Origin: Candidatus Omnitrophota bacterium
GTDB taxonomy: Bacteria; Omnitrophota; Gorgyraeia; Gygaellales; Profunditerraquicolaceae
Length of the DNA stretch: 64,000 nt
Assembly: GCA_028718245.1 (NCBI GenBank)
Contig: JAQUME010000001.1
Location: forward strand, 8,390 to 72,389
Direction: 5' to 3'
The position numbers were made by a program, and so were the translations under genes. The notes beneath the pieces are model-generated. The model was not told the origin of the DNA. It ran no database searches and saw nothing but the letters and a program-made list of their open reading frames with translations. Shown here piece by piece: positions 3,438 through 60,560 of this stretch. Position 1 is the stretch's first letter. Every line of letters starts with the position of its first letter.

Positions 3438-3509
3438 TGCGCCTGGCAGGAATTGAACCTGCACCACCAGCTTCGGAGGCTGATGCGCTATCCGTTGCGC
3501 TACAGGCGC
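3438..3509 (-). tRNA. tRNA-Arg (anticodon CCG)
   Basis: The minus-strand sequence GCGCCTGTAGCGCAACGGATAGCGCATCAGCCTCCGAAGCTGGTGGTGCAGGTTCAATTCCTGCCAGGCGCA folds as a cloverleaf. Acceptor GCGCCTG/CAGGCGC, D-stem GCGC/GCGC, anticodon loop CTCCGAA, T-arm GCAGG-TTCAATT-CCTGC. No CCA is encoded. Confidence 0.85.
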
Positions 3510-4754: not shown

Positions 4755-6029
4755 TTACCTTTTATAAACTATTTTCCCGTTACATATCGTATAATCTACC
4801 GCGCCTTTTAAAGTGCGCCCGATAAATGCGCAGTTTTTGGATTTTGAGATCAAGCCGCCCTTAGTGACCTGCCATTCTTCTTCGGGAGAAATAACCACTA
4901 TATCCGCTGTCTTGCCCTCGCTTAAAGTCCCTTTGTCTATGCCTAAGATCCTTGCAGGATTTACCGCGAGACACTCAACCAGTTGCCTCCAGTCCAATAT
5001 TTTAGAGTAGACCAATTCGGTTATACTGGCGGCTAATTCGGTTTCTAAGCCGATCACCCCGAACTCCGCGCGCTCAAACTCAATATCCTTTTCATTCTCC
5101 GTATGCGGGGCGTGGTCGGAAGCGATGACGTCAATAGTCCCGTCTTTTAATCCCTCTTTTATCGCCGCCAGGTCACTTTTACTTCTTAAGGGAGGGTTCA
5201 TCTTCATGTTTGTATCATACCCTAAAAGGGCATCTTCGGTAAGTGAAAAATAATGCGGGGCAGTTTCACAGGTTACCTTGATTCCTTTTTTCTTAGCCGT
5301 GGCAATGATCTCTACCGACTCCCGGCAACTCACGTGGGCGATATGAACCGGCGCTTGAGCTTTTTCTGCCAGTTCAATATCCCGTTCCACTCTTCTGTAT
5401 TCCGATTCCTTTGGTATGCCGCGCAGACCAAGGCGGGTAGAATTAAACCCGAGATTGACCACCCCTCTTCCTGAAAGTATTTTATCCTCGCTGTGGCAAA
5501 TGGCCAGGAGCCCGGACTGCTTTGCTTTTTTAAATGCCCCAAGCATCAGCTCATCGTTATCTACCGAACAGCCATCATCGGATATTGCGTAAGCTCCGCT
5601 TTTCTTTAACGCGAGGATATCGCTTAATTCCTGGCCCAGGCGACCTTTAGTAATAGTTCCGCAGATAAGCACATTGATCCTGGCGTCTTTAGCGATTATT
5701 CCTTTTAACAGTTCAATGCTCTCTGGGCAATCCATAGCCGGATTAGTGTTCGGCATGGCTAAAACAGTGGCCACCCCGCCTTTGGCAGCTGCGGATGTGG
5801 CAGTAGCCACTGTCTCCTTATCCTCTCTTCCGGGCTGGCGCAGATGCACGTGCATATCAATGATCCCCGGGCTAACAATTTTGCCTGCCGCATCAATTAT
5901 GCTCTCTGCATGGGCTTTGATATTTTTGGCAACCTGGGATATTTTTTCGCCTTCAATTAAAATATCTCTCAGGCCATCAATTTTGTTTGCCGGGTCAATG
6001 ACCCTTGCGCCTTTGATCAGTATGCTCAT
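4755..6029 (-). CDS. pyrC: Dihydroorotase
   Basis: The protein carries DMHVHLRQPG and DHAPH motifs and is 424 aa. It overlaps pyrB by 4 nt. Confidence 0.9.
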   Translation of the reverse strand: MSILIKGARVIDPANKIDGLRDILIEGEKISQVAKNIKAHAESIIDAAGKIVSPGIIDMHVHLRQPGREDKETVATATSAAAKGGVATVLAMPNTNPAMDCPESIELLKGIIAKDARINVLICGTITKGRLGQELSDILALKKSGAYAISDDGCSVDNDELMLGAFKKAKQSGLLAICHSEDKILSGRGVVNLGFNSTRLGLRGIPKESEYRRVERDIELAEKAQAPVHIAHVSCRESVEIIATAKKKGIKVTCETAPHYFSLTEDALLGYDTNMKMNPPLRSKSDLAAIKEGLKDGTIDVIASDHAPHTENEKDIEFERAEFGVIGLETELAASITELVYSKILDWRQLVECLAVNPARILGIDKGTLSEGKTADIVVISPEEEWQVTKGGLISKSKNCAFIGRTLKGAVDYTICNGKIVYKR

Positions 6030-6958
6030 GTTTTTAGTTCCCTTGCCTGGGCTACCAGGAATAAAACCGCCATTCTTACGGCAATGCCATTGGTTACCTG
6101 CTCTAAAATTACCGAGTTTGCACCGTCGGCGACCTCGCTGGACATCTCAATGCCCCGGTTGATCGGGCCTGGATGCATAACCACTATATCCTTTTTGGCC
6201 TTGGCTAACCTCTCCACGGTGATCCCGAACTTCTTAAAATAATCCAATTGCTCGGGGAATGCCGTCCCTTCATCGCGTTCAAATTGCATCCTCAAAACAT
6301 TTACCGCGTCAGCGTTTTTCAGGGCTTCATCTATATTGCTGGAGGTTTTCACCCCGGTTTTTTCTATTTCAACCGGGAGCAGCATCTCCGGAGCGCATAC
6401 CGTGACATTGGCCCCTAATTTAGTCAGCCCCCAGATGTTAGAACGGGCAACCCGGGAATGGGCGATATCGCCGACAATAGTTACATTCAGGCCTTGAATT
6501 TTTCCCAGCTTTTCTTTAAGGGTGAAAATATCCAGCAATGCCTGCGTAGGATGCTCATGCCAGCCGTCTCCGGCATTTACCACGCTTATATCTAGATGCC
6601 GGGCCAGCATATTCGCAGCACCCGAACAATTATGCCGCATAATGATTATATCTGCTTTTAGCGCCTGGATATTTTTCCCCGTATCGATCAGGGTCTCTCC
6701 CTTACGGACGCTGGAGGTTTCGGTAGCGATATTAATTACATCCGCAGAGAGCCTTTTTGCCGCTACCTCAAAGGAAACCCTTGTCCTGGTTGACGGTTCG
6801 TAGAAAAGATTTACCGCGGTCTTGCCGCGCAAGGCCGGGACCTTCTTGATCTCCCTTGTAGAGACCTCCTTAAATGACTCTACGGTATCAAGAATTATTT
6901 CTATTTCTTCCCTGGTTAAATACTCCAGCCCCAATAAATCCTTCTTTGTCCAGGACAT
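6026..6958 (-). CDS. pyrB: Aspartate carbamoyltransferase catalytic subunit
   Basis: The protein carries STRTR, HPTQ and HPGP motifs and is 310 aa. Confidence 0.95.
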   Translation of the reverse strand: MSWTKKDLLGLEYLTREEIEIILDTVESFKEVSTREIKKVPALRGKTAVNLFYEPSTRTRVSFEVAAKRLSADVINIATETSSVRKGETLIDTGKNIQALKADIIIMRHNCSGAANMLARHLDISVVNAGDGWHEHPTQALLDIFTLKEKLGKIQGLNVTIVGDIAHSRVARSNIWGLTKLGANVTVCAPEMLLPVEIEKTGVKTSSNIDEALKNADAVNVLRMQFERDEGTAFPEQLDYFKKFGITVERLAKAKKDIVVMHPGPINRGIEMSSEVADGANSVILEQVTNGIAVRMAVLFLVAQARELKT

Positions 6959-7534
<576 letters not shown>

Positions 7535-7616
7535 TTAATTTTGGTCTTCTTATTTTACTCATTTCTTCCTTGCCAGCTTCTCAAGAGCCAGCTTAAAGGG
7601 TTAATTTATTGATATA

Positions 7617-7645
7617 AATATAGCACCTGAAAGGTATCCTGTCAA
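7617..7645 (-). promoter_or_regulatory. Sigma70-like promoter for pyrR operon (TTGACA-N17-TATATT)
   Basis: The minus strand reads cccTTGACAggatacctttcaggtgcTATATTtatatc. The spacing is perfect and it lies about 110 nt upstream of pyrR. Confidence 0.4.
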
Positions 7646-7688
7646 GGGCATATTTTTCCAGGGCGCCGCTAGAGATTACAAAGAAAAA

Positions 7689-7748
7689 GGGACGCTTAAT
7701 AGGGAACCTTCTTTTTGGCTGATAAACCTGTGGGAAGGTAAGCGTCCC
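7689..7748 (-). terminator. Rho-independent terminator of the giant ORF
   Basis: GGGACGCTTA (7689-7698) pairs with TAAGCGTCCC (7739-7748). On the minus strand it lies just 3' of the stop codon and is followed by UUUUUCUU. Confidence 0.6.
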
Positions 7749-7750
7749 TT

Positions 7751-10700
7751 TTATTGAGTTATCAATTGCGGTTCTTTTGCGAGAACCTGTATATTTATTA
7801 ATGCCAGCCTTAATTCATTTACCGGCTTACCTGATTCAAGCAAAACCAGGATTTCCTTTAAAGAAGATTCCGTGCCGCAGGCCTTTTCCTCCTCCTGCCT
7901 CAAAATATCGGCGATGCAGGCAAGGACCCTGTCTATCTGGGTGCTTGGATCTTGCAGAGACAAAAGATATTCTCTTATGCGTTCGCAGGAAGGCGCTATT
8001 CCTGAATTTGCCATCCTCTCTATCTCCTGCCATTCCTTATCAGAAAGAGGAGCTGTCCCCGAAGGGGACTGTCCCTGCTTCACCAAAGGACTCCCAGCTG
8101 TTACTTTTTCCACCTTCGTATACTTGGGCAGCGACCGCATATCAATACCGCCAACAGAGTTATCTTCCTTTTGATCTCTTGCTTCCAATGGACTTACCCC
8201 TCCTAAAGCAAGGTTCTCATAAGAAATATAGTCCTGCTCTGTTAAAGGGGTGAAATAAAAAACTCCATCCCTTTGTGCCCAAACTACTCCATATAAATAT
8301 GGACCATATGCATTTGACCAAGAAGTTAGACCACCCTTTTCTCTAATTTTAGTTACCAACATTTGCGCGGGGCCTTCTACCAACCCTCTGGCAACTGGAT
8401 CATCTCTAAATTTACCCCATTCATCACCTCTGGCCACTGCTATACGCCGCGACAAATCAACAGCCCATGCTTCTCCTCTATTTTTTGTTATTAACGCTGT
8501 TATATCATCGGCCTGTAGTGTGCCTGGGAATTCTTGTTGCAGGCTTTGCACGGGCCTAAATGGCGCTAATATTTCCTTCTGTCTTTGCAATCTATCCTGT
8601 ATAAGTTTTAACCTTTCTGTCGAATATTCCAAAGGTTCGTTTATCCCTGGCCTCGCAACCTTGACTGGATTCCGCATCGGCGAGCCGGCGGCAACTTTAG
8701 ATCTTATCAAAAGGGCTACCCCTGTTTCTGCATTATATGTCTTCACGGTTAAAGCTCTGCCATTTTGTGAGGAGTATTGTTGAATATAACCTCCCCACCC
8801 GTGTTGTTCCGGCACAAAATCAAACACTATGAATCCGTCTTCTGTAAGCAAGTTTTCCAACTCTCTAAGGTGGCTAAAAAATCTCTTAAGTTTTGCGCTG
8901 TCTTCATTATGAGTTGGCAAAAGGTGCCATAGCGATGTATAGCTATAGATGATATCGACTTTACCATTCCCTAAAAATTCTTTTATCCGTTCTTGCAATT
9001 TTGTATCCGTATCGACAATAAATAAAATGTTATCTGGAATGGGCCTGGAGGCTGGATAAAAAGTGTCTCCAAAAGCAAGAATAAATACATTATTTCTGCC
9101 TTTTGCTTTCAGGCGATCATGCAAATCCATTATCTCGGTTAAGTCGCCGGCTCCCCACCCAAGAACATATACCGGCTCTTCCTTCCGGCTTTCGGATAAA
9201 GCTGAGATTTTATCAAACAATTCTCCTCCAAGAATATCTTTAAAGGACGCATTAATTTCTTCAAATCTTGAATTTATTTGAATCCAAGGCGAATCTTGTA
9301 TCTTAATCTCACCGTTTTCCTCTCTTAGTACTCTCTTGCCCCCCTCGCTATGCTTAATTTCCTCAATCTGTTCTTGAGACAAATCTGGGGGAAATACAAT
9401 ACCATCCGCTGGACGTCCTAAAAATCCTTGCACCGGACTGACCACGGCAGCCTTTACGGTATCCGCAACCGGCGAACCGACGGATTTTTCTATGTCTTTA
9501 AATGCCGTAGCAACGGGAAGCCCTTCGATTGCCCCTTGCTGCATGGATTCTTCTTTTGCCGTATCCAAGAACTTCCCAAGCCCGGCAATAATCGGGCTCA
9601 CAATAGAAGCGGTTAATAAATCTCTTCGCCATACCAGATGCTCGGGAAGCCCATATTTGGCTTGGATTTTCATCACAAGCCCTCTTAATTCCCCTTCCAT
9701 CTGTTTAGCATCTTTTTTGGAAAAACCCTGGAAAAAATCCGCCAATTTCTTTACTTGTTCCGGTCCTATGCCAGAGAACAGACTGACCTGGCAAAGCTCC
9801 TCAAAAATAATGCTCATCGCAAAATAATCAATGTTGTTTATCACCGCTGATTGGACAAAATTAAGCATTTTTAAGATTTCAATTTGCGGGTAGTTCCCGC
9901 TTAAGCTCCTCAGCCTGGCATCAAGTTCATTAGTAACATCCCTGGCGTTTTCTCTAACGCCTTCTGCTCTAGGTTTACCTCCGAGCCCAATAATTACCCT
10001 GGCTATCTTTTCTCCTATCTTGTCATTATCCAGCTGGCGGTGGCGGTTAAAAGCATGCTCTGATTCATGGTAAATAATATTCTCTTCCAGGGCGGCCAAA
10101 ACAATATTATTCCAATCTTTTCTGCCTTTAGCATCTTTGAATGTTTCTTGTATTATTTTCGCATATGCCATTCTTAAAGACGCTATATTAGGCCCTGCCC
10201 ATTCATCCCAAACAGGAATTGTATTACTGTTCCCGGCGAGCACAGGATAAATATACTTATCAATAATCTTTTGCACCTGGCTGCGAATAACAACAACCAT
10301 ATCCAGATCATAATTATAAAACCCGTTGGCATTAAAACGCTCGCCGTTAACCGGTTCAACAATTATAGCTTTTACCTTCCTTAAGCCGTCTTTAGAAGGA
10401 ATTACCTTAGTTTCGAGAATACGAAATTCAGCCCTCTCGATTACTATGCTTTCTCCCTTTTTATTTTTAGCGCCAAAAACGGCATCTGCTGCTGCGGCCG
10501 GGCCATGTAACAGCGCTATCCCTAAACCTGCCCCAAGGCCTATCAGAAAATTCCTTTTCTTGAGGTCTACCGACTCTCCCTGCCCTGGCGTTTCGCCGGG
10601 CAAAAAAGAATCCGATTTTTTCGCGATGGGGGAACCGGCGCCACTTTGATTTTGAAACGCTAAACCTGCAGGCTGAACCGGCCTGTTTGATTTAAGGATT

Positions 10701-12526
10701 ATTTCGCCAGGAATTTGTCCGTCTAATGCCAGGCGGACATTCTCTGAAAACCCTCCACCTGACCTAGCTTTCGCTAACAAGGTGTTCGGCAGCACTTCTT
10801 CAAAGCCCGTCCCGCTATTCATTGCTTCCATGATGGCTTTTTTAAAAATAGAGGTCAGGGGGACCGTATGCAGATAGTAATTCTTCTCCTTTATGCCGCT
10901 TAGTTCTTTAACCTTTGACTTTTCTTCCCAGGGACGGCTGGGAATGGCGTTATAAATGCTCTGCAGGGTTTCAAGGTTATTTACAAAACCACTTACCTCG
11001 GTTATATTGCCAAAAAAAGCCTCTCTTGCTGCTTTCAACATATGTCCATATATATCTTGACCCCGATGGACAGGTTTAACATAGACATTATCGCCAAAGA
11101 TCCCCCGGCTGCCGTCGGGAAGATCATACAGCTTAAATTTCATTTCGCCGGCTGTCGTATAATCTTGAGAGCGGACTTCTATCTTATACCCCTCTCCTAA
11201 ATCATAAAGATTAAATCTGTAATATGCCCTACTCCCCTTATCATCTCCGAGCTCGTAAGTTATGTTTTTCTTCTCCAGCGCCGAGCCGGCGACAGACGAC
11301 CGCTCCTTCGCAGATACAACAGCTTCTATTTCTACCTCAAAGGGGCTGCTTGCTGAGCCACCCTTAGTATTTAAATGTATTATATATGGCGCAGGCCCCA
11401 AATGCCCGCGGGTGCTTGGTACAATTCCAGTTGAAATGGCAGAGGATACTGAAGCAAAAGCAATCCCCCCGCTCATATAGCTCCTTATGCTCTGGCCGTA
11501 CAGAGTGGAGCGCGGCTCTTTAATGTTGTATTCTCCCTGTTGAAATGAGGCTTTGTACGCGTTAAAGTAAGTTGTTTTAGACCAGGAGGTCTTGGAGGTT
11601 AAGCCATTAAGGTTGTGCCTGTCTATGAGGTAGGCATATACGCCTGATTTGCCGTAGAATCTCTGTTTAAACCATTGCGCCAGGATAAGCGAGTAGTAAA
11701 CTTGCCTTAAGGGGGCGTATCTTTTGGAGGAGTTAATTTCTTTGGTTAACTTAGGGATAATAGTTTCTCTGATGAGTTGAGAGGAGTATTCATTCAGGAC
11801 TTTGGAGCGCTGATCCGGAAAGCTGTAGGTGGATGAATCTTTGAGATAATCCTGTTCAAGCATGACTTTAAGCGTTGCCTTGTAGATGTAGGCATTGTTG
11901 GAGCTCTCCCTGATGATGATCTCATCCGGAACAATCCAGGGACGGGTGAGAGTGGGTATGGCTATGTTCTCATTGCCGTAGAGCTCTTCTGCTTTTTTGT
12001 AAAGCTTATCCCAGTAATCTTTTCCTTCCGGGGTTTGGGGTGAGGTAAAGTTAGCTGTGTCTTTCTTAAGCTGGAGGTCGGCCTCAAGCAGGATCCTGCC
12101 TACGTCAGTTTCAGCAAGCTCCGGGTCAATAATGTTATTGGGTGAATCAGGCCGCAGGTTTACCCAGAAAGCTTCATTAGGTAAGGATATGCCGATGAAG
12201 AAATAATTGAGCAGGGTTTTGGTTTCCCGCTGCAAGATCTCTTCAGGGACAGTCCCCTTGTCTTCCTTCGTGATAGCTTCCCGCGGGGACAGTCCCTTCG
12301 CGAAATCTCCTTTGTCCAGAAGAAGGTTGAAGTTGTTGCTCAAGGCGTCGTAGGAAAGGTACCTTAGGTGAAGAGGGCGGAATCTGTCCTGAATGAAGCT
12401 ATTTCGCAGGGCAAAGAAGTGGCCTGAAAGATCCAACTCTCCAGCGATCTGGGTAAAGCCGGATTGCTGAAAAATAAGCACAAAACAAAGCAAAAAAGAT
12501 AAAATTTTGGTAAGCTTATGTGGCAT
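7751..12526 (-). CDS. Giant hypothetical bitopic membrane protein: signal peptide, about 630-aa extracytoplasmic region, one TM, and a cytoplasmic region with HExxH motif and class I SAM-methyltransferase-like domain
   Basis: It is a single uninterrupted 1591-aa ORF. The N-terminus MPHKLTKILSFLLCFVLIFQQSGFTQIAG is signal-like. A hydrophobic helix FLIGLGAGLGIALLHGPAAAA sits at about aa 660-680. IIYHESEHAF is at aa 818-827. MTase-like motifs are VYVLGWGAGD (I), VDIIYSYTSLWHL (II) and LLTEDGFIVFDF (III) at aa 1119-1240. I recognise no other family match. Confidence 0.8.
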   Translation of the reverse strand: MPHKLTKILSFLLCFVLIFQQSGFTQIAGELDLSGHFFALRNSFIQDRFRPLHLRYLSYDALSNNFNLLLDKGDFAKGLSPREAITKEDKGTVPEEILQRETKTLLNYFFIGISLPNEAFWVNLRPDSPNNIIDPELAETDVGRILLEADLQLKKDTANFTSPQTPEGKDYWDKLYKKAEELYGNENIAIPTLTRPWIVPDEIIIRESSNNAYIYKATLKVMLEQDYLKDSSTYSFPDQRSKVLNEYSSQLIRETIIPKLTKEINSSKRYAPLRQVYYSLILAQWFKQRFYGKSGVYAYLIDRHNLNGLTSKTSWSKTTYFNAYKASFQQGEYNIKEPRSTLYGQSIRSYMSGGIAFASVSSAISTGIVPSTRGHLGPAPYIIHLNTKGGSASSPFEVEIEAVVSAKERSSVAGSALEKKNITYELGDDKGSRAYYRFNLYDLGEGYKIEVRSQDYTTAGEMKFKLYDLPDGSRGIFGDNVYVKPVHRGQDIYGHMLKAAREAFFGNITEVSGFVNNLETLQSIYNAIPSRPWEEKSKVKELSGIKEKNYYLHTVPLTSIFKKAIMEAMNSGTGFEEVLPNTLLAKARSGGGFSENVRLALDGQIPGEIILKSNRPVQPAGLAFQNQSGAGSPIAKKSDSFLPGETPGQGESVDLKKRNFLIGLGAGLGIALLHGPAAAADAVFGAKNKKGESIVIERAEFRILETKVIPSKDGLRKVKAIIVEPVNGERFNANGFYNYDLDMVVVIRSQVQKIIDKYIYPVLAGNSNTIPVWDEWAGPNIASLRMAYAKIIQETFKDAKGRKDWNNIVLAALEENIIYHESEHAFNRHRQLDNDKIGEKIARVIIGLGGKPRAEGVRENARDVTNELDARLRSLSGNYPQIEILKMLNFVQSAVINNIDYFAMSIIFEELCQVSLFSGIGPEQVKKLADFFQGFSKKDAKQMEGELRGLVMKIQAKYGLPEHLVWRRDLLTASIVSPIIAGLGKFLDTAKEESMQQGAIEGLPVATAFKDIEKSVGSPVADTVKAAVVSPVQGFLGRPADGIVFPPDLSQEQIEEIKHSEGGKRVLREENGEIKIQDSPWIQINSRFEEINASFKDILGGELFDKISALSESRKEEPVYVLGWGAGDLTEIMDLHDRLKAKGRNNVFILAFGDTFYPASRPIPDNILFIVDTDTKLQERIKEFLGNGKVDIIYSYTSLWHLLPTHNEDSAKLKRFFSHLRELENLLTEDGFIVFDFVPEQHGWGGYIQQYSSQNGRALTVKTYNAETGVALLIRSKVAAGSPMRNPVKVARPGINEPLEYSTERLKLIQDRLQRQKEILAPFRPVQSLQQEFPGTLQADDITALITKNRGEAWAVDLSRRIAVARGDEWGKFRDDPVARGLVEGPAQMLVTKIREKGGLTSWSNAYGPYLYGVVWAQRDGVFYFTPLTEQDYISYENLALGGVSPLEARDQKEDNSVGGIDMRSLPKYTKVEKVTAGSPLVKQGQSPSGTAPLSDKEWQEIERMANSGIAPSCERIREYLLSLQDPSTQIDRVLACIADILRQEEEKACGTESSLKEILVLLESGKPVNELRLALINIQVLAKEPQLITQ

Positions 12527-12608
12527 TTGTTGAGCTTGTTTTAAGATGCGGTTTATCAGCCGTATTAATAATTAAGTATGCTATATAGGTAAGGGCGGTT
12601 CAAGGGCA

Positions 12609-12634
12609 AAACCGCTGTTTTGGGAAAGCGGTTT
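12609..12634 (-). terminator. Terminator-like hairpin downstream of rsmI
   Basis: AAACCGCT (12609-16) pairs with AGCGGTTT (12627-34) as an 8-bp stem about 20 nt 3' of the rsmI stop. The trailing U-tract is weak. Confidence 0.3.
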
Positions 12635-12654
12635 CTTGGACTAAAGTGGGATTT

Positions 12655-13308
12655 TTACAGAATGATTACAAATTCACCGCGGGGTTTTTGATCCTTTAGG
12701 GACTCGAGAATGGCTTTTGCGCTGCCGCGTTTTACCTCTTCGAATTTTTTGGTAAGTTCTCTGGCTACAGCTATCTCTTTATCGCCAAAGACGGCTTGAA
12801 TATCTTCTAGGGCAGCTAAAATCCTGTGGCAGGATTCATAAAAGATCAGGGTGTATTTTAACTTCGCCAGCTCTTTAAGCCGGTTGCGCCGGGCCTGCGT
12901 CCGGTTGGGAAGGAATCCTTCAAAAATAAATTTGTGGGCAGGTTTACCCGACAATACCAGCGCGTTTACCAAGGCAGTCGGCCCAGGCAGTACTGAAATC
13001 GGAATATTATTCTTTATGGCCGAGTTGATTATATTGTATCCCGGATCAAGTATCCCCGGCATACCCGCGTCTGAAACCAGAGCAACGGATTTGCCGTCTT
13101 TGAGCAATTTAAGCAAATGCTCTGCTTTGGTAATCCTGTTGTGCTGAAAAAAACTGGTGGTGGGGGCCTGGATGCCGTAATGATCAAGCAGTATCTTAGT
13201 GTGGCGCGTATCCTCGCAGGCGATCAAATCCACCTGCTTCAACACCTCCAGGGCGCGCAAGGTAATATCTTTTAAGTTGCCGATGGGGGTAGCGACTATG
13301 TATAACAT
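12655..13308 (-). CDS. rsmI: 16S rRNA (cytidine1402-2'-O)-methyltransferase RsmI
   Basis: The N-terminus MLYIVATPIGNLKDITLRALEVL and the motifs IACEDTRHT and LVSDAGMPGI place it in the tetrapyrrole-methylase family. Confidence 0.85.
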   Translation of the reverse strand: MLYIVATPIGNLKDITLRALEVLKQVDLIACEDTRHTKILLDHYGIQAPTTSFFQHNRITKAEHLLKLLKDGKSVALVSDAGMPGILDPGYNIINSAIKNNIPISVLPGPTALVNALVLSGKPAHKFIFEGFLPNRTQARRNRLKELAKLKYTLIFYESCHRILAALEDIQAVFGDKEIAVARELTKKFEEVKRGSAKAILESLKDQKPRGEFVIIL

Positions 13309-15143
13309 TATTCCACGGTCACAGATTTGGCTAGATTACGCGGCTGGTCAACGTCGCATCCGCGTTTTACCGCGATGTGGTATGCCAATAACTGCAGCGG
13401 CAGCACTGCCAGGAGGGGAGAGAATAATTCTTCGCATTTCGGAATATATACTACCTCAGAAGTCAGCTCCTTGATATTAGAGTCTCCTTCGGTGGCAATA
13501 GCAATTATCTTGCCGCAGCGGGAGCGGATCTCCTGGATGTTAGAAACCATCTTTTCATAAACCTTTGATGCCGGGGCAATGCAGACTACGGCGCGGTATT
13601 CATCGATCAAGGCGATCGGGCCATGCTTCATCTCTCCTGCGGCGTAACCTTCCGCCGGAATATAAGAAATCTCTTTTAATTTTAACGCCCCCTCCAAAGC
13701 CGATGGATAATTTATATTCCTGCCCAAATACAAGAATGAACCAAAATGCGAGTGCCTGCGGGAAAGCCTGGCAATTGCATCCTGCTCCTTAAGGATCTCC
13801 TCCTGTTTCTTGGGTATGCCTCTTAACTCTTCCAGTAATTTATTGATTTTATTTTGTGGGATTATCCCGCGGACCTCTGCCAGATAAAAGGCAAACAAAT
13901 AAATCGCGGTCAGCTGCGCGGTATAGGCCTTAGTGGAGGCAACCCCGATCTCCGGGCCGGCGTGGGTATACATTACCCCGTCTGATTCGCGGGTCAAGGT
14001 TGAACCCAGGACATTGCAGATGGAAATTACCGAAGCCCCCAGTTTTTTGGCCTCTCTGACCCCTGCCAGGGTATCCGCGGTCTCTCCGGACTGGCTGATC
14101 GCCAATACCAGGGTATCCTTATCAATCAGCAGGTCCCGGTAACGGAATTCGCTTGAAACATCTATATACGTAGGTATCTTACAGAGGGATTCCAGGGCAT
14201 ACTTGCCCACCATACCCGCATGATAAGCTGTGCCGCAGGCAACGATAAAAATACTCTTGATGCTTTTCAACTTTTCAAGCGGGATATCCTGCTCCTGAAA
14301 AAGAATGCTGTTGTTTTTTTGGATCCTCAAATCAAGCAGGTTATCGATTATCTTAGGCTGCTCATTGATCTCCTTGAGCATAAAATGCTTATACCCCTGC
14401 TTTTGCGCCTGCTCAATATCCCAGCTGATCCGCCTTGTTTCCCTGGTTACTGTCTTGCCGTTCAGATCGGTTATTTTACAGCTATTCTTGCTTAATACCG
14501 CCACCTCGTTCTCATCCAGGAAAATTATATCTTTGGTGTGCTCAAGGATCGCCGGGGCATCCGAGGCAAGAAAGTTCTCCTCTTTGCCGATCCCGATGAT
14601 CAAAGGGCTGCCTGAGCGCGCGCCTACAAGTTTGCCCGGTTCCCGTTTGGCAATAACCGCGATGGCAAAGGAACCGGTAACTAATTTAAGGGCCTTGCGA
14701 ACCGCCTCTTCTAACGGGGTATTTTTGTAAAATTTCTCAATAAGATGCACGATGACCTCGGTATCGGTCTGGCTGCGGAAGTTATGCCCCTCTTTGATCA
14801 GCTGCGCTTTCAGGGATTCGTAGTTTTCGATTATCCCATTATGCACCAGTGCTATTTCATTTTTGCAATCAGTATGGGGATGGGCATTATTTTGGGTAGG
14901 CGCTCCGTGAGTAGCCCAACGGGTATGCGCAATCCCTACCGAACCTGCGAGGGGCTTTGATCTTAGTAATTTATCCAGGGCTTTGATCTTGCCGGGAGAT
15001 TTTCTGACGGAGGGGGTGTTTTTGCCGGGAAGAATAACGGCTATACCGCTGGAATCATAACCGCGGTACTCCAGGCGCTTAAGGCCAGTCAAGAGTATTT
15101 CTTGGGCTGGCCTTTCACCTATGTATCCGACTATTCCGCACAT
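13308..15143 (-). CDS. glmS: Glutamine--fructose-6-phosphate aminotransferase
   Basis: The protein has the MCGIVGY N-terminus with catalytic Cys2 and a C-terminal KSVTVE. It is 611 aa. Confidence 0.95.
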   Translation of the reverse strand: MCGIVGYIGERPAQEILLTGLKRLEYRGYDSSGIAVILPGKNTPSVRKSPGKIKALDKLLRSKPLAGSVGIAHTRWATHGAPTQNNAHPHTDCKNEIALVHNGIIENYESLKAQLIKEGHNFRSQTDTEVIVHLIEKFYKNTPLEEAVRKALKLVTGSFAIAVIAKREPGKLVGARSGSPLIIGIGKEENFLASDAPAILEHTKDIIFLDENEVAVLSKNSCKITDLNGKTVTRETRRISWDIEQAQKQGYKHFMLKEINEQPKIIDNLLDLRIQKNNSILFQEQDIPLEKLKSIKSIFIVACGTAYHAGMVGKYALESLCKIPTYIDVSSEFRYRDLLIDKDTLVLAISQSGETADTLAGVREAKKLGASVISICNVLGSTLTRESDGVMYTHAGPEIGVASTKAYTAQLTAIYLFAFYLAEVRGIIPQNKINKLLEELRGIPKKQEEILKEQDAIARLSRRHSHFGSFLYLGRNINYPSALEGALKLKEISYIPAEGYAAGEMKHGPIALIDEYRAVVCIAPASKVYEKMVSNIQEIRSRCGKIIAIATEGDSNIKELTSEVVYIPKCEELFSPLLAVLPLQLLAYHIAVKRGCDVDQPRNLAKSVTVE

Positions 15144-15162: not shown

Positions 15163-15237
15163 TGACCCTGACGGGATTTGAACCCGTGTCGAGAGCTTGA
15201 AAAGCTCTTGTCCTAGACCAGGCTAGACGACAGGGTC
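15163..15237 (-). tRNA. tRNA-Glu (anticodon TTC)
   Basis: The minus-strand sequence GACCCTGTCGTCTAGCCTGGTCTAGGACAAGAGCTTTTCAAGCTCTCGACACGGGTTCAAATCCCGTCAGGGTCA folds as a cloverleaf. Acceptor GACCCTG/CAGGGTC, anticodon stem AGAGC/GCTCT, loop TTTTCAA. Confidence 0.85.
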
Positions 15238-21639: not shown

Positions 21640-23013
21640 TTATTGTTTAATAACCTGGATAACTTTTTCCAGGCGCTCCTTTAGATCGGGATCATGCAGT
21701 ACGTTTTCTTTGATTTTGTTATAAGAATGCAATACGGTAGTGTGGTCTTTGCCTCCAAAGGCCTCCCCGATCTCGGGCAGGGACAGGTCTGTCAACTCCC
21801 TGCTTAAATACATGGCGATCTGCCGCGGCAACACTACTTGTTTGTTACGGCGTTTGGTTTTTAGATCCTGCAAAGTAACACTGAACTCCTCTACCACGCA
21901 GCGTTGAATAAAGTCAACGGTAATTAACTTCTTTGGTTCTTTTAAGAGGTCCTTGAGCACCTCTTTAGTCAGCTGCAGGGTTACCGGTTCCTCTTCCAGG
22001 AGAGAATAGGCAATGGTCCTGATCAAGGCCCCCTCCAATTCGCGGATATTGGTTTTGATCAGCTGGGCAATAAAAAAGATCACTTCATCCGGCACGCTAA
22101 CCGGCTCCCGCTCGATCTTTTTCTTGAGGATAGCCACGCGTGTCTCCAGGTCCGGAGGCTGGATATCCGTGGTAAGCCCCCAGCCGAACCGCGACACCAG
22201 CCGCTCCTGTAAATTGGCGATCTCCTTAGGGGGCCGGTCTGATGAGAAAACGATCTGCTTATGGCTGTCGTAAAGAGTGTTAAATGTATGGAAAAATTCT
22301 TCCTGGGTAGATTCTTTGCCGGCAATAAAGTGGATATCATCGATAACCAGGACATCGGCATTGCGGTATTTTTGGCGGAACGACGCCGTGGAATGATGCT
22401 GTATGGCGTCGATCAACTCATTGGTGAACTTTTCGCTGGATATATAACATATTTTTACCCCGGCCGGCGAAGAGTTTTTTATATGGTGGCAGATCGCCTG
22501 GATCAGGTGTGTTTTGCCCAAGCCCACCCCTCCGTAAATAAAGAGCGGGTTATATGTTTTAGCCGGGGCATTGGCCACTGCCAGCGAATAAGCGTGCGCA
22601 TGGCGGTTTCCGGAGCCCACGACAAAATTTTCAAAGGTATAGCGCGAGTTGAGATTGATGTATCCGGCAACCTGGCCTGTCTTGATGTTCGGTTCTGCCG
22701 CTTTCTCCGGGGCGGCAGGTTTGATTTGACTGTTGCCCACGCTCAATGTTACTAACAGATTATTCAGGCCTCGTTGTTTGAGGGTTTCTGCAATAGAGCC
22801 GAGATAATGCTTTTCAACCCAATCTTTGAAAAATTGATCCGGGGCTTCAAGATCGATCTCCTGGCTGCCCTTGGCAGAAAATTTAAGAGGGGCGATCCAA
22901 GTAGCAAAGATGGTCTCTCCAAGCCTCCCCTTCAACTCCCTCTGCGCTTCTTCCCACTGTTGATTAATTTCAGGCATAGTCCCCATTAAAAAATTTATCT
23001 CGCCAGATAGCAT
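21640..23013 (-). CDS. dnaA: Chromosomal replication initiator DnaA
   Basis: The protein carries Walker A GVGLGKTHL, an AAA+ domain and a C-terminal DnaA box-binding domain. The true start is probably MPEINQQW, about 12 codons into the listed ORF. Confidence 0.95.
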   Translation of the reverse strand: MLSGEINFLMGTMPEINQQWEEAQRELKGRLGETIFATWIAPLKFSAKGSQEIDLEAPDQFFKDWVEKHYLGSIAETLKQRGLNNLLVTLSVGNSQIKPAAPEKAAEPNIKTGQVAGYINLNSRYTFENFVVGSGNRHAHAYSLAVANAPAKTYNPLFIYGGVGLGKTHLIQAICHHIKNSSPAGVKICYISSEKFTNELIDAIQHHSTASFRQKYRNADVLVIDDIHFIAGKESTQEEFFHTFNTLYDSHKQIVFSSDRPPKEIANLQERLVSRFGWGLTTDIQPPDLETRVAILKKKIEREPVSVPDEVIFFIAQLIKTNIRELEGALIRTIAYSLLEEEPVTLQLTKEVLKDLLKEPKKLITVDFIQRCVVEEFSVTLQDLKTKRRNKQVVLPRQIAMYLSRELTDLSLPEIGEAFGGKDHTTVLHSYNKIKENVLHDPDLKERLEKVIQVIKQ

Positions 23014-23266
23014 AGCCGGCCGGCGGGTTTAACAGAGTTAACAGTTTATGCACAGCTTGCATAAGTCTGTGGATAAAAATCAAGTTCAGCCTATCTTCGA
23101 TCAAGGCCATTATAACAGAGAGCAAAATCCTTACAAGCAAAAAAGTTAAACGCCATTTATTATACAATAATATGCGGGGGCGTCAACAAAAAACTTGACC
23201 GCCTGGAAAATGTGTGTTACAATTCACAAAATCAAGAAGGCTTGTTTAAAAAAGGAGTTCTAAAAA
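23014..23266. other. Candidate oriC: DnaA boxes plus AT-rich unwinding region between dnaA and rpmH
   Basis: There is a perfect DnaA box TGTGGATAA at 23068-23076. A one-mismatch box TTATGCACA sits at 23046-23054. An AT-rich stretch, aaaaagttaaacgccatttattatacaataatat, spans 23140-23175. Confidence 0.5.
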
Positions 23267-23404
23267 ATGAAGAAGAATTTAAAAACGCCTACAAACATCG
23301 TGGGCAAGAAACGTCATGGTTTCCGCAGCAAAATGGCCACTAAGTCCGGGCGCAGCCTATTAGCTCGCCGACGGAAGAAAGGCAGAAGGAAGCTTTGCGT
23401 TTGA
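23267..23404 (+). CDS. rpmH: 50S ribosomal protein L34
   Basis: The 45-aa [48 protein letters not shown] is below the ORF-track cutoff. It is preceded by an AAAGGAG Shine-Dalgarno sequence. Confidence 0.9.
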
Positions 23405-23418
23405 GGCTTGTAAGCTTG

Positions 23419-23619
23419 ATGCTGGGGTTGATCACGGCATACCAGAGGTATTTAAGGAGCATCCTACCGGAAACATGCCGTTTTGAACCAGGCTGCTCTG
23501 AATATACCAAACAGGCAATTTCAAAATACGGAATCATTAAAGGAGTATCTAAGGGTCTGACAAGAATATCCCGCTGCCACCCATTTTCCGGCCGGTCAGG
23601 TTATGATCCCTTAATATAA
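23419..23619 (+). CDS. yidD: Membrane protein insertion efficiency factor YidD
   Basis: The product carries the CRFEPGCSEY and RCHPFSGRSGYDP motifs of DUF37/YidD. An alternative upstream start at 23395 would overlap rpmH. Confidence 0.8.
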   Translation: MLGLITAYQRYLRSILPETCRFEPGCSEYTKQAISKYGIIKGVSKGLTRISRCHPFSGRSGYDPLI

Positions 23620-23624
23620 AATTT

Positions 23625-25139
23625 ATGGAAAAACGCTTAGTGCTTGCTATTGCTTTGTCGCTTTTGATAATGTTAAGCTGGTCAACGCTAGTTAATAAAA
23701 CTCAAACCATTGATAATAAACAGGTTACGCAATTAACTACGCCTAATGTCAATAACCTGCCTTCTGCCGTTGTCCAGGCCTCCGCGCAGCCCCCCAAAGA
23801 AGCGGCAAAAGAGCTGGTGAGTTTTAAACAGAATAACCGGGAAATAATTTTTGACGTTGCAAAAGCAGCGATTGTTGAGGTGATCTTTAAGGTTAACCTG
23901 GATCACAGCCTGGTGCTGGCAGATGGTTTTTACAGCGACGGCGATAATCTATTTAAGCTGGACAAGATAACCAGGGATTCAATTTCCTTTATTTACCACG
24001 GTCAAGATAAACACATTGTTAAAGAATTTTATTTTCCTAAAGATAGTTATGTCATAGAGTTAAAGATAAATACCCGCAATATATCCTCTTCTGTCCTTAC
24101 ACTAAATTCCCGTTTATCCTTAGGAACACTCAATATGTCTTCAAAGAATCCGCAATCACGTTATTACGGTGTTTTTGTAGCAGGCGGGGAAAAGAATTGG
24201 CATCTTGGCGCCGGAAAAGAGTTCAATAGCCAGGATGTAAAATTCATAGGTTTACGCGACCAGTATTTTTGCGCCATTGTTGAACCGGTTTCCGCAGCCA
24301 GCGGCTATATTAAGAAACTCAATGGTCAGGAATCTGAGATCGGAATACAGGGGAAAGAGATCAATTTAAAGCCAAATGAACAGATTGGACAATTATATCG
24401 AATTTATTTGGGGCCGCAGGATTCAAAAACTATAAATAATATAAAGCCAGAATGGTCCGCAATAATCTACTACGGAACCTTTGATTTTATTGCCCAGCTT
24501 CTTTTACAGCTATTAGGATTCTTTTATAGTTTGGTGCATAATTGGGGTTTGGCCATAATTCTCTTGAGCCTTGTAGTTTATCTTGTGCTTTTCCCGCTCA
24601 CCTTAAAACAAATGCGCTCAATGAAAGAAATGCAATTATTACAGCCCAAAATTGAAGCCCTGCGCTGCGAGCTTAAAAATAATCCACAAAAATTGAACAA
24701 GGAAATAATGGAACTCTATAAGGAACATAAGGTTAACCCATTAGGCGGTTGTCTGCCTTTGTTGTTACAAATGCCTATTTTCTTTGCTCTATATCAGGCG
24801 CTGATCCGCTCTGTCGCATTAAGGGGGGCAAAGTTCTTGTGGATCCAGGATCTTTCTGCTCCGGACCACCTCTTCACTCTAAAAAATTCAATACCATTTT
24901 TAGGAAACCATATTAATATATTACCTATTCTTATGGCTATCGGTATGTTTGTGCAACAAAAGATTTCCATGGCTAAAACAACCGGAGAAGCGGCACAGCA
25001 GCAGAAAATGATGTCTATTATAATGCCGATCATGTTTGGGGTTATTTTTTATCAAATGCCCTCAGGATTAGTGCTCTATTGGTTTGTGAATAGCACATTA
25101 ATGCTTGCATATCAATTCCGTATTAACAGGCAAAAATGA
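23625..25139 (+). CDS. yidC: Membrane protein insertase YidC
   Basis: The 504-aa product has an N-terminal TM, a periplasmic domain and a C-terminal 5-TM core with PSGLVLYWFVNSTL. Confidence 0.9.
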   Translation: MEKRLVLAIALSLLIMLSWSTLVNKTQTIDNKQVTQLTTPNVNNLPSAVVQASAQPPKEAAKELVSFKQNNREIIFDVAKAAIVEVIFKVNLDHSLVLADGFYSDGDNLFKLDKITRDSISFIYHGQDKHIVKEFYFPKDSYVIELKINTRNISSSVLTLNSRLSLGTLNMSSKNPQSRYYGVFVAGGEKNWHLGAGKEFNSQDVKFIGLRDQYFCAIVEPVSAASGYIKKLNGQESEIGIQGKEINLKPNEQIGQLYRIYLGPQDSKTINNIKPEWSAIIYYGTFDFIAQLLLQLLGFFYSLVHNWGLAIILLSLVVYLVLFPLTLKQMRSMKEMQLLQPKIEALRCELKNNPQKLNKEIMELYKEHKVNPLGGCLPLLLQMPIFFALYQALIRSVALRGAKFLWIQDLSAPDHLFTLKNSIPFLGNHINILPILMAIGMFVQQKISMAKTTGEAAQQQKMMSIIMPIMFGVIFYQMPSGLVLYWFVNSTLMLAYQFRINRQK

Positions 25140-25342
25140 AGAAGGAAAGATATATAGAGGCTGAGGGCAAAACCATAGAAGAGGCGGTAAAAAATGCCCT
25201 TCAGATACTTAAGCTGCCGCGTAAATGCGTGAAAATAAAGACACTGTCTGAAGAAAAAAAGGGTCTTTTTGGAATGCCGGGAGCTAAGCCGGTTAAGGTA
25301 CGGGTGACCGTAATTGCAGGTAGAGATCCTGTATCGGCATAG
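25136..25342 (+). CDS. Jag/KhpB N-terminal domain protein (truncated; no KH/R3H domains)
   Basis: The 68-aa product MKKERYIEAEGKTIEEAVKNALQILKL resembles a Jag_N domain. It sits in the canonical position after yidC. Confidence 0.55.
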   Translation: MKKERYIEAEGKTIEEAVKNALQILKLPRKCVKIKTLSEEKKGLFGMPGAKPVKVRVTVIAGRDPVSA

Positions 25343-25357
25343 GGTTCAAGAAAACAC

Positions 25358-25385
25358 TTGACAATTGCTTTGCATTTGAGATAAT
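25358..25385 (+). promoter_or_regulatory. Sigma70-like promoter upstream of parA (TTGACA-N16-GATAAT)
   Basis: The sequence is cacTTGACAattgctttgcatttgaGATAATtaag. It lies about 60 nt upstream of parA. Confidence 0.4.
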
Positions 25386-25442
25386 TAAGTTAAATAAAAG
25401 GCAGGGTTTCCCGGGGAACTAATTGTAAGTTTAATAATATCA

Positions 25443-26240
25443 ATGGGTAAGATAATTGCAGTCTGCAATCAAAAAGGTGGTGTAGGCAAAACTACCACAT
25501 CCATTAATCTCTCCGTATCTCTGGCCATGACCGGCAAAAAGGTTCTGTTAATTGACCTGGATCCTCAGGCCAATGCCACCAGCGGCATAGGGATAAACAA
25601 GCACGATATTAAAAAAAGCACCTATCATATTTTGCTAGAGGAGTTAAACCTCGGCGATATTTTACAGAAGACAATGGTAGATAATCTTCTGCTGGCTCCT
25701 TCTAATCTGGATTTAACCGGGGCAGAAGTGGAGTTGGTCGGCGCATTAGGCCGTGAATATAGATTAAAAAGAGCCCTGCAAAAAGAAAAAGAAAACTATG
25801 ATTTTATCATTATTGATTCGCCGCCATCACTGGGCCTGTTAACCATTAATGGTTTATGCGCTGCCGATTCCGTGATCATCCCGGTGCAATGTGAATATTA
25901 TGCGTTAGAAGGTTTGACGCAACTCCATAACACTATTAGACTTGTGAAGGAAAATCTTAATCCTGCCTTGGAGATCGAAGGGGTATTATTAACCATGGCA
26001 GATTTTCGCACCAATCTTACCAAAGAGGTTATTCAGGAAGCGCGCAATCATTTTAAAGATAAAGTTTATAATACCGTAATTCCTAGAAACATAAGGCTTA
26101 CCGAGGCCCCGGGTTTTGGCAAGCCGATCGCTTTATATGACGCCGATTCTCTCGGCGCGCAGAAATACGCGGAACTAACCAGGGAGTTGTTGGGTATAGC
26201 GCTAAACACTGATTCTAAAATTTCACAAGGAGAGGTTTGA
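25443..26240 (+). CDS. parA: Chromosome partitioning ATPase ParA/Soj
   Basis: The protein carries a deviant Walker A KGGVGKTTT and is 265 aa. Confidence 0.9.
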   Translation: MGKIIAVCNQKGGVGKTTTSINLSVSLAMTGKKVLLIDLDPQANATSGIGINKHDIKKSTYHILLEELNLGDILQKTMVDNLLLAPSNLDLTGAEVELVGALGREYRLKRALQKEKENYDFIIIDSPPSLGLLTINGLCAADSVIIPVQCEYYALEGLTQLHNTIRLVKENLNPALEIEGVLLTMADFRTNLTKEVIQEARNHFKDKVYNTVIPRNIRLTEAPGFGKPIALYDADSLGAQKYAELTRELLGIALNTDSKISQGEV

Positions 26241-29827: not shown

Positions 29828-29899
29828 GGCGACGTAGCCAAGTGGTAAGGCAGTTGTCTGCAAAACAACTATTCAGCGGTTCAATTCCGCTCGTCGCCT
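29828..29899 (+). tRNA. tRNA-Cys (anticodon GCA)
   Basis: Acceptor GGCGACG/CGTCGCC, anticodon stem GTTGT/ACAAC, loop CTGCAAA, T-arm AGCGG-TTCAATT-CCGCT. Confidence 0.85.
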
Positions 29900-29910
29900 G
29901 AATTCATAGC

Positions 29911-29993
29911 GGGCAAGTGGTGGAATGGCATACACGACAGACTTAAAATCTGTTGGCCGCAAGGTCGTAAGGGTCCGACTCCCTTCTTGCCCA
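29911..29993 (+). tRNA. tRNA-Leu (anticodon TAA), long variable arm
   Basis: Acceptor GGGCAAG/CTTGCCC, anticodon stem ACAGA/TCTGT, loop CTTAAAA, T-arm AAGGG-TCCGACT-CCCTT. Confidence 0.8.
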
Positions 29994-30016
29994 TTTAAAT
30001 AAAGATTATTGTGCTT

Positions 30017-30090
30017 GGGCTCATAGCTCAGTTGGTTAGAGCGTTGCGTTGACATCGCAAAGGTCTGAGGTCCGAATCCTCATGGGCCCA
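30017..30090 (+). tRNA. tRNA-Val (anticodon GAC)
   Basis: The sequence GGGCTCATAGCTCAGTTGGTTAGAGCGTTGCGTTGACATCGCAAAGGTCTGAGGTCCGAATCCTCATGGGCCCA gives a textbook cloverleaf. Confidence 0.85.
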
Positions 30091-39631: not shown

Positions 39632-39713
39632 TAAAATGATAGAGCGCAGTTGGGATTGACTTTTCTTCTAAATATGTGCTATACTTTTGTGAGAAGAGAC
39701 CGTTCTTTTAGAT

Positions 39714-60091: not shown

Positions 60092-60175
60092 AGGGAACGA
60101 GCAATATCGGTAGCTGAAAATATTTTTTCCTTCCCTTGAAATAGGCAGCGGATTTGTGTTATATTTAAGTAGTGA

Positions 60176-60266: not shown

Positions 60267-60315
60267 TAATAATAAAATAGCTGTAAAGTATTGAATCGCA
60301 CTAAAGGAGGGGGTA

Positions 60316-60513: not shown

Positions 60514-60560
60514 CCTCCCATAAATAAATTAATAATTTGGTAGTGGAGTAGCGATACTAA

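Follow-up and report, generated by a model that had tools for sequence, protein, structure and literature searches.

One gene in a 64,000-nucleotide stretch of contig JAQUME010000001.1 from Candidatus Omnitrophota bacterium raises the question of how a single protein of 1591 amino acids (aa) came to carry a signal-like N-terminus, an HExxH motif and a methyltransferase-like segment in one chain. The initial annotation of this stretch, referred to here as the window, suggested a signal-transducing or self-processing system: an exported sensing domain wired through one transmembrane segment to metalloprotease-like and methyltransferase modules inside the cell. The current work shows that the gene belongs to a large bookended mosaic family, in which two conserved ends enclose a middle that is replaced wholesale. 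All positions are those of the whole window, and residue numbers are those of the 1591-aa protein. The gene is a complete coding sequence (1591 aa plus stop) at 7751..12526 on the minus strand, marked (-) below; as the annotation had it, the open reading frame (ORF) is single and uninterrupted from ATG to stop. At NCBI, a hypothetical protein from a Candidatus Omnitrophica metagenome-assembled genome (MAG) has the identical sequence (100%).

The first indication of the architecture came from the distribution of similarity along the protein. A broad homolog search, covering 5.8 billion proteins, gave more than 810 matches, the 119 best of which were mapped by BLAST. In these 119 the alignment is confined to aa 1 to about 370 (56-82% identity) and about 1445-1591 (32-77% identity). 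The N-domain starts at most 24 residues from the start of the protein, with one exception, the C-domain ends at most 16 residues from the C-terminus, and 360-2286 unrelated residues lie between the two ends. The first bookend is the conserved N-domain, aa 26-354 (11465..12451, (-)), ending at an invariant R-x-Y-x-S-G-G; the second is a conserved C-terminal block, aa 1443-1591 (7754..8200, (-)), present in 115 of the 119 top matches. The annotation had described the C-terminal region of about 350 aa as free of recognisable motifs, a description that fails for its last 150 or so residues, which are this second family domain. Thousands of proteins share the first 355 or so residues at 60-86% identity and the last 150 or so at 35-78%. 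Among ancient paralogs the ends stay 57-86% (N) and 30-78% (C) identical, and the middles are unrelated. Gene conversion or concerted evolution was considered as the cause of the N-domain conservation and rejected: paralogs within one genome have N-domains that are mostly 58-70% identical, and pairs from different genomes have a median of 64%, so that the former are as divergent as the latter. The ends are therefore held by selection and not by gene conversion.

The family is large. An exhaustive HMMER search with aa 1-400 as the query gave 7,468 cluster representatives at E<=1e-3, of which 5,692 also pass E<=1e-30; among the 150 matches listed, the N-domain starts within about 60 residues and the proteins reach 7,391 aa. 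Loci confirmed in species-representative genomes number 449, and nearly all of them are labelled Omnitrophota; the few other labels probably reflect binning or naming. The best 80 of these 449 loci are designated L001-L080, and sampled family proteins carry P-numbers. At least 12 assemblies contribute 2-3 copies each to the best 80 loci. The shortest ORF with both ends has 609 aa and consists of the N-domain, a linker of about 140 aa and the C-domain. In 44 ORFs that carry both end domains, from independent contigs and including single-cell genomes, the N-domain stands at residue 1 and the C-domain comes last.

Some copies stand in tandem, about 20-60 bp apart (L018, 656-9982 and 10004-15922; L067, 3913-8892 and 8951-16207). 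A single frameshift or stop interrupts several others (L047 at 10001-13885, L037, L038, L045 and L075), and these could be sequencing errors or pseudogenes. An origin in phages or mobile elements was tried and rejected: the N-domain occurs in only 2 of 2.9 million viral contigs, both times at a contig end, and has no PHROG match.

The relation between the ends and the middle is clearest where the DNA of close relatives can be compared. In the closest syntenic locus, L001, the DNA is 81-83% identical and collinear through gyrB, gyrA, glmS, rsmI and codons 1-370 of the family gene. From about codon 370 to 1483 no DNA similarity is left, over 3.3 kb here and 6.2 kb in L001, and similarity then resumes into the pyr genes. 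The same is seen between recent duplicates: the N-domains of the L018 tandem pair are 86% identical and those of L018 and L021 are 91% identical, in both cases with no similarity in the middle. In such recent paralogs similarity ends right after ...RSYxSGG and resumes at (S/A)SP(L/V)...GGID. The middle is thus replaced wholesale rather than diverged. The chromosomal position is shared by part of the family, with rsmI directly upstream of the family gene in 24 of the 80 loci; at most 7 of the 80 also show pyr genes downstream, many loci ending before that point. The rsmI-adjacent family proteins range from 1591 to more than 3690 aa.

The replaced middles draw on common material. Among 193 sampled members, considering middle residues only, 50% of these residues have a homolog in another member, and the shared stretches have a median length of 218 aa, 36% identity and a positional offset of 513 aa. 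All four modules of the present middle, named M1 to M4, recur in other members at different positions. The middle is therefore a mosaic of domain-sized modules from a family-wide pool. A homology search with aa 432-1440 alone found only the protein itself; the word prefilter was limiting there, and BLAST against the fetched members finds the module homologs. The middles of relatives hold HATPase_c, GGDEF, Ser/Thr kinase, FHA, metallophosphatase, radical SAM, PPDK, GNAT and methyltransferase domains. Peptidases, phosphatases, glycosyltransferases, metabolic enzymes, DnaJ and HEAT and TPR repeats are among the further cargo. Most cargo has no Pfam match.

The modules are joined in a recognizable way. 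Linkers rich in Ser, Ala and Gly end in a family-specific motif, [A/S/V][S/G]-S-P-[V/L/I/A], and the words ASSP, SSPV and AGSP are 15-38 times more frequent downstream of the N-domain than expected from composition. The density of the motif is 1.43 per 1000 aa in family proteins vs 0.06 in other ORFs of the same loci. Its first copy lies at a median of aa 408, its last a median 150 aa short of the C-terminus, and successive copies are spaced by a median of 270 aa. Inside shared modules it is depleted (5.5% vs 22.5 +/- 1.7% expected), and at module ends it is enriched (32% vs 13.4 +/- 1.5%). Its positions in the 1591-aa protein, aa 392, 630, 1016, 1028, 1280, 1443 and 1477, coincide with the module boundaries.

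The S-P codons of the junctions vary but favour TCG (44% vs 11% background) and CCG (57% vs 30%), as counted over the family ORFs of L001-L080, in which the instances are not independent (in the window, nt 8675-8689 and 9467-9481). This bias could be due to a role at the DNA level, such as a recombination site, or to shared descent.

Neither bookend matches Pfam, NCBIfam, PHROGs or PADLOC, and profile searches against PDB sequences came back empty for both. A model of the N-domain, built from a 33-sequence alignment, has a confident alpha+beta core (predicted template-modelling score, pTM, 0.71) and matches no solved structure and no viral structure. The domain has no invariant Cys or His. In front of it, aa 1-25 (12452..12526, (-)) resemble a signal peptide of the general secretory (Sec) type by hydropathy and family consensus: MPHKLTK, a 12-residue hydrophobic core ILSFLLCFVLIF, and QQSGFT with Q following the putative cleavage site give the n/h/c layout of Sec signals. 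The family consensus here is MxxKxxKIxxxxLCFxLIFEQSGFA followed by QVAG, with a hydrophobic stretch of 12-13 residues; the -1 residue of the putative cleavage site is T in the 1591-aa protein and A in the consensus. The signal peptide proposed by the annotation is thus upheld as a signal-like N-terminus, judged by inspection together with the family consensus, and from it we infer cleavage and export.

The C-terminal block consists, in order, of GVSPL (1443-1447), GGIDMRSLP (1459-1467; family consensus GGIDFRALPIVTQP), AGSPL (1477-1481), a linker rich in Pro and Ser, and a helical bundle at about aa 1494-1579 (window 7790-8047). The bundle is modelled well by AlphaFold2 (AF2), with a predicted local distance difference test (pLDDT) of 84-90, and holds conserved Cys residues (..ACIADILRQEEEKAC..), which are also kept in the family consensus (..EYLxSCC.. 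and ..VLxCIADILRLEEExxC.T...). The conserved cysteines suggest a disulfide or a metal site.

The family is not described in any library or paper searched. The passages of the literature that were searched hold no description of it, of its N/C domain pair, of the junction motif, of internal twin-arginine translocation (Tat) signals or of cassette replacement.

Of the four modules in the middle, M3, aa 1021-1284 (8675..9466, (-)), has a confidently predicted fold and ends in AGSPM (1280-1284). The annotation had placed methyltransferase motifs I, II and III at aa 1119-1240, and this stretch indeed covers beta1 to beta5 of a confidently modelled Rossmann-type fold, but no hidden Markov model (HMM) of a sequence family is significant for it. 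Pfam, searched with the whole protein and six segments at E<=10, gives no family for any of them, 0 for the M3 segment included, so that the segment-wise HMM search proposed by the annotation was negative; NCBIfam has no significant model for M3, and searches of NCBIfam, PHROGs, PADLOC and PDB sequences yielded no usable annotation of the protein. Judged by the standard that the annotation itself set, the methyltransferase motifs lack HMM significance. In the AF2 model, aa 1039-1279 or so have a pLDDT of 85-97 and alternate beta and alpha elements, and Foldseek against the PDB returns 298 matches at E<=1e-3 (best E = 3.6e-7). The best 50 of the 298 are nearly all class I S-adenosylmethionine (SAM) methyltransferases, such as Spb1/FtsJ/Trm7, COMT, MnmC and PrmC, with a target-normalised template-modelling score of up to 0.57, to FtsJ 1eiz. 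A class I methyltransferase fold for M3 is supported by the model.

Its putative SAM site departs somewhat from the standard. The site residues are motif I VYVLGWGAGD (1119-1128), D1154 at the end of beta2 and D1191 in beta4 (D-x-x-x-S). Across 7 homologs W-G-A-G is invariant, and the third Gly position is taken by D or N; G1123 stands where 4 of the 7 homologs have the usual Asp, and the beta2-end residue is D or N in the homologs. Compared with known class I enzymes (FtsJ/RrmJ/Spb1, COMT, PrmC), M3 shares the fold, a G-x-G after beta1, the acidic residue at the end of beta2 and the D-x-x-x-S; unlike them it has motif I in the form WGAG(D/N) and not GxGxG, and it is only 8-17% identical to solved structures. 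M3 may thus be a putative methyltransferase whose modelled SAM site is only partly canonical. Six homologs of M3 (over its aa 1025-1280) occur at other positions in other members, and Pfam matches to such homologs stay below threshold (Methyltransf_17, 0.0044; Methyltransf_25, 0.052; Methyltransf_32; Methyltransf_31). A profile search of PDB with the M3 alignment also pointed to designer pentatricopeptide repeat (PPR) proteins at E~1e-9; this candidate was rejected, being a 26-residue match summed over repeats in which no single stretch is significant. P0057 (aa about 1390-1440, VWDYGVGDG) and P0014 (aa about 2000-2040, VFDFGAGDG) contain a second, canonical PrmA-like motif I beside the divergent WGAG module, so that the family holds at least two forms of methyltransferase-fold cargo.

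Module M2, aa 635-1020 (9467..10624, (-)), comprises a segment resembling a Tat signal, a piece rich in beta structure and a helical region with the HExxH motif, and ends in VGSPV (1016-1020). The motif, HESEH at aa 820-824 (10055..10069, (-)), is a candidate zincin metal site. It is present as the annotation reported, with H820 and H824 as its histidines, but the coordinates given for it were off by about one residue, and the expectation of one such motif by chance in 1591 aa does not hold: for this composition the expectation is 0.019, and the motif appears in 1.7% of shuffles. The sole homologous module, in P0057 (aa 694-964 vs residues 972-1244; 31% identity over 278 aa), keeps it as HEVQH together with a downstream ELxxRLxxLSGxYP block. 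The conserved Glu of ELxxRL, about 47 residues downstream of HExxH, is a candidate third metal ligand in a module that the AF2 model of aa 680-1591 renders with low confidence (pLDDT 35-60), from an alignment of only 2 sequences there. No peptidase family model of Pfam, NCBIfam, PHROGs or PADLOC matches M2. Judging from the motif and its conservation, the module is a plausible candidate zincin metallopeptidase.

The hydrophobic segment ahead of this region was read by the annotation as a transmembrane segment at about aa 660-680. A hydrophobic stretch does exist, at aa 659-683, and is the only one after the N-terminus, but it is marginal (maximum 19-residue Kyte-Doolittle average 1.64) and resembles a Tat signal. 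The whole segment KKRNFLIGLGAGLGIALLHGPAAAADAVFGAK (aa 655-686; 10469..10564, (-)) begins 27 aa after a junction motif, and KKRNFLIGLGAGLGIALLHGPAAAADA reads, by inspection, as a KR variant of the twin-arginine signal, with K-R-N-F-L-I, an h-region rich in Gly and Ala, and AADA. By itself the KR pattern shows no enrichment in the family (1 observed vs 1.2 expected). Near-canonical internal RR signals (SRRNFLK..., SRRGFLKFAGAAVGAAALG, TRREFLKMIGIGAVATAV...), by comparison, occur in 16 of 206 sampled relatives vs 0.91 +/- 0.92 in shuffles, a 17-fold enrichment, and often stand 8-27 residues past a junction motif. P0057 also has an internal Tat-like signal, upstream of its HExxH module. The hydrophobic segment is thus assigned to M2, and M2 looks like a former or current Tat substrate. 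The segment sits 655 residues into the ORF and not at an N-terminus, as Tat signals require, and would therefore be functional only if cleavage exposes it. Other internal Tat-like signals are found, for example, in P0070 (aa 441), P0035 (aa 691), P0117 (aa 410) and P0124 (aa 3784); in three cases a Met stands 1-2 residues ahead of RR, which looks like the in-frame capture of an entire gene.

The two remaining modules likewise have homologs in other members. The linker with M1, aa 355-634 (10625..11464, (-)), includes the module from after ASSPF (392-396) to AGSPI (630-634), and homologs of M1 (aa 403-633) lie at residues 3509-3743 in a member of 4375 aa (53% identity) and at residues 6102-6305 in one of 7391 aa. 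M4, aa 1285-1442 (8201..8674, (-)), is mostly helical in a low-confidence AF2 model, and aa 1261-1445 are 70% identical to residues 1834-2020 of P0002.

The explanation favoured here, with confidence only a little above even, is that the gene is a family member with constant handling ends and an exchangeable cargo middle that is swapped by recombination. The N- and C-domains would share one job in every copy, such as export, anchoring or docking to a common partner or machine; one common task is the most likely reading since the ends are constant across ancient paralogs with unrelated middles. The middle would be exchangeable cargo of enzymes and binding modules, and recombination would exchange it, with the conserved DNA that encodes the ends and the junctions as the fixed frame. 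Given the mosaic architecture of the family, the methyltransferase-fold and HExxH modules would be cargo items and not outputs of a sensor.

Several observations weigh against this explanation. Neither bookend resembles a known targeting, secretion or anchoring domain in the sequence-model and PDB searches, and their function as handling modules is one that we infer. No secretion-system, immunity or other partner gene recurs beside family members in the 80 loci, where only housekeeping synteny is seen. The signal peptide is putative, as judged by inspection only. Many cargo domains are of a cytoplasmic, nucleotide-dependent type (HATPase_c, GGDEF, kinases, radical SAM, PPDK), which fits poorly with export; cargo of this kind behind an export signal might act in another cell, belong to members whose topology differs, or be processed before targeting. 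About a quarter of 206 members have a transmembrane-like segment at aa 365-700, just after the N-domain, and topology may differ between members.

The alternative that survives best, though it is held to be unlikely, is a precursor polyprotein, which would be cut after YxSGG, between GG and ID, and at the A-S-S-P-V junctions, releasing modules; those with a Tat signal now at their N-terminus would be exported by Tat, and the bookends would have a part in synthesis, handling or processing. The family-specific motif stands exactly at module boundaries, the boundaries at SGG and GGID are sharp, and the near-canonical Tat signals, 17 times enriched, often begin 8-27 aa after a junction. Self-processing, mentioned in the annotation, is possible given the junction motifs. 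Passages of a preprint (10.1101/2023.11.21.568195) propose that C39 and S8 peptidase domains cut giant Omnitrophota proteins into smaller polypeptides, which would agree with such cleavage. No protease was identified for the present sites, however, and the HExxH module occurs in few members. The motif could be a plain linker or a trace of module joining, and captured genes could have left the Tat signals behind as recent relics. Moreover, N-terminal Sec export is hard to square with cytoplasmic cleavage followed by Tat export. A broader version, itself doubtful, would make these genes cargo-cassette polyproteins: captured genes with their own Tat signals would be cut out at SGG/GGID and A-S-S-P-V, some products being re-exported by Tat and some perhaps acting on a host or prey. 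A single gene would in this way supply a variable set of separate enzymes. If that were true, cassette polyproteins would be a new way to organise and diversify a bacterial secretome, and possibly a mid-size counterpart of the Omnitrophota giant proteins.

A related proposal, quite unlikely in our judgement, is a polymorphic effector or toxin aimed at a host or prey, in which the ends secrete or translocate the protein and the enzymes act in the target cytoplasm. In MARTX (multifunctional autoprocessing repeats-in-toxin) proteins, conserved N- and C-terminal regions bracket a mosaic effector array, the arrays recombine between strains, and the linkers are processing sites. The present family is similar in its great length, its constant ends around a shuffled central array of enzymatic modules and the rapid turnover of cargo between close relatives; the cargo, with its kinases, phosphatases, GNAT, methyltransferases, peptidases and DnaJ, also resembles effector repertoires. 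Omnitrophota have been proposed to be host-dependent or predatory nanobacteria in passages of PMC10066038, a lifestyle that would suit such a function. Unlike MARTX toxins, however, the 1591-aa protein lacks repeats-in-toxin (RTX) and glycine-rich repeats, a cysteine protease domain, Rhs/VENN elements and any Pfam match, and there is no similarity in sequence or fold and no neighbouring type I secretion system. It has an N-terminus resembling a Sec-type signal, the family is present in multiple copies per genome, and the present copy is a syntenic core-region gene at a distance of about 10.5 kb from oriC. Among the neighbours of family members, none of an immunity-like or secretion-system kind recurs. 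The polymorphic toxins CdiA, Rhs and MuF also combine a constant part with swapped modules and a short motif at the switch point, and CdiA VENN and Rhs PxxxxDPxGL are comparable to SGG, A-S-S-P-V and GGID; those toxins, however, have a polymorphic C-terminal tip and an immunity gene, whereas here the C-terminus is conserved and the variable part is internal and multi-modular. Downstream of the present gene there is no immunity gene, a terminator and pyrR being found there, and no small neighbour family recurs in the 80 loci.

The bitopic sensor of the initial annotation, with an exported N-domain, one transmembrane segment at about aa 660-680 and metalloprotease-like and methyltransferase outputs in the cytoplasm, is very unlikely. 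It would account for the signal-like N-terminus and the one later hydrophobic segment, for the transmembrane-like segment at aa 365-700 in about a quarter of relatives, and for signalling outputs such as HATPase_c, GGDEF, Ser/Thr kinase, FHA and metallophosphatase among the cargo of relatives. Proteins with Cache or CHASE domains show that a shared sensor can serve many outputs. The N-domain is constant, however, across thousands of otherwise unrelated proteins; sensors diverge with their ligands, and the ancient paralogs of this domain still share about 60% identity or more. With a hydrophobic segment defined as a 19-residue Kyte-Doolittle average of at least 1.6 after the N-terminus, 135 of 206 members have none, so that a bitopic layout does not characterise the family. 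The segment present here is weak and Tat-like, and P0057 has a similar signal upstream of its HExxH module. Moreover, a conserved C-domain accompanies the N-domain (115 of 119 top matches), the cargo also includes peptidases, glycosyltransferases, DnaJ, HEAT/TPR and metabolic enzymes and is mostly dark to Pfam, and the middles reach thousands of residues. Of the reading given in the annotation, the methyltransferase fold is borne out and the HExxH is plausible, and the wiring from a sensor through the membrane to outputs finds no support. An artefact, in which genes were fused by mis-assembly or sequencing error or the ORF is non-coding, is scarcely credible: the exact sequence is known from one MAG only, with no record in the contig index, but the same layout recurs in the 44 ORFs from independent contigs and single-cell genomes with family lengths of 609 to more than 7,000 aa, the C-domain is in frame at the ORF end with a strong terminator after it, and each of M1-M4 has in-frame homologs in other members.

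Two further comparisons place the favoured family of constant ends and exchangeable cargo among known long proteins. Passages on giant Omnitrophota proteins ('Archaeovorins' and the dockerin type; 10.1101/2023.11.21.568195, 10.64898/2026.06.07.730766) describe chains that string together HATPase_c, radical SAM, PPDK_N, NUDIX, GGDEF, HAD and GNAT. As presented there, these giants come from the same phylum and share signal and transmembrane predictions, Pfam-dark stretches and proposed processing; they differ in that their classes are set by length (at least 10-30 thousand aa) and Pfam content (dockerin, TSP3, C39, SecA), and the passages searched show no N/C-domain pair, junction motif, internal Tat signals or cassette replacement. 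With domain content that overlaps, a relationship between the present family and the giants is plausible. Polyvalent proteins of phages and conjugative elements are likewise giant and combine methyltransferase, zincin-like and other modules in variable order; the present family, unlike them, is chromosomal, with 2 of 2.9 million viral contigs and no PHROG match, and has constant bookends.

Omnitrophota are widespread, uncultured and probably host-dependent nanobacteria, whose long and giant proteins have already been recognised as puzzling. The present family would contribute modular proteins in which the handling parts are constant and the cargo is exchangeable, built from domains that have no detectable relatives. 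It offers a simple, testable grammar: two ends without detectable sequence relatives, a junction motif, and module exchange even between recent duplicates. The end domains, the motif and the internal Tat signals could serve as handles on the export, display or delivery of enzymes and on the assembly of long multi-enzyme ORFs. For annotation, the HExxH and methyltransferase modules would be interchangeable cargo and not a dedicated signalling circuit.

The surroundings of the gene are those of a conserved core region. On the minus strand the order is dnaA, dnaN, gyrB, gyrA, a tRNA gene, glmS, rsmI, the giant gene, pyrR, pyrB and pyrC, with yidC, parA and parB on the plus strand diverging from the origin. 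The flanking genes are rsmI (12655-13308), the upstream neighbour, which has a terminal hairpin of its own as read from the sequence, and pyrR/pyrB/pyrC (4755-7504). The position between rsmI and the pyr operon and the possession of its own terminator were both described correctly by the annotation. RNA folding shows an intrinsic-terminator-like hairpin followed by UUUUUCUUU at 7679..7752 (-); the hairpin itself (7685-7752) overlaps the stop codon, is followed by a U-run and has a folding free energy of -28.4 kcal/mol (z = -5.89; 0 of 200 shuffles equally stable). No second copy of either bookend was found in the rest of the 64-kb window. A replication origin is probable at 23014-23624, between dnaA (21640-23013, (-)) and yidC (23625-25139, (+)), because gene orientation diverges there and the cumulative GC skew has its minimum at about 22-24 kb.

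The stretch between the terminator and pyrR holds, at 7645-7617 (-), what resembles a strong promoter (TTGACA-17-TATATT, preceded by TG), and a second hairpin with a U-run (CCGCC..GGGCGGATTTTTTT) stands at about 7505-7530, directly before pyrR. Together they may form a PyrR-type attenuator in 7505-7650, a region for which Rfam gives no match at gathering score. Elsewhere in the window, a cluster of three tRNA genes lies at 29828-30090 (+), and single tRNA genes are found at 3438-3509 (-), 15163-15237 (-) and 60686-60756 (+), one of the single genes lying between gyrA and glmS. Two 2-kb stretches, 24001-26000 (0.397) and 60001-62000 (0.394), are low in G+C relative to the window average of about 0.47. 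A 6S/SsrS RNA gene is located at 39712-39872 (+), matching Rfam RF00013 with 68.7 bits against a gathering score of 46.4.

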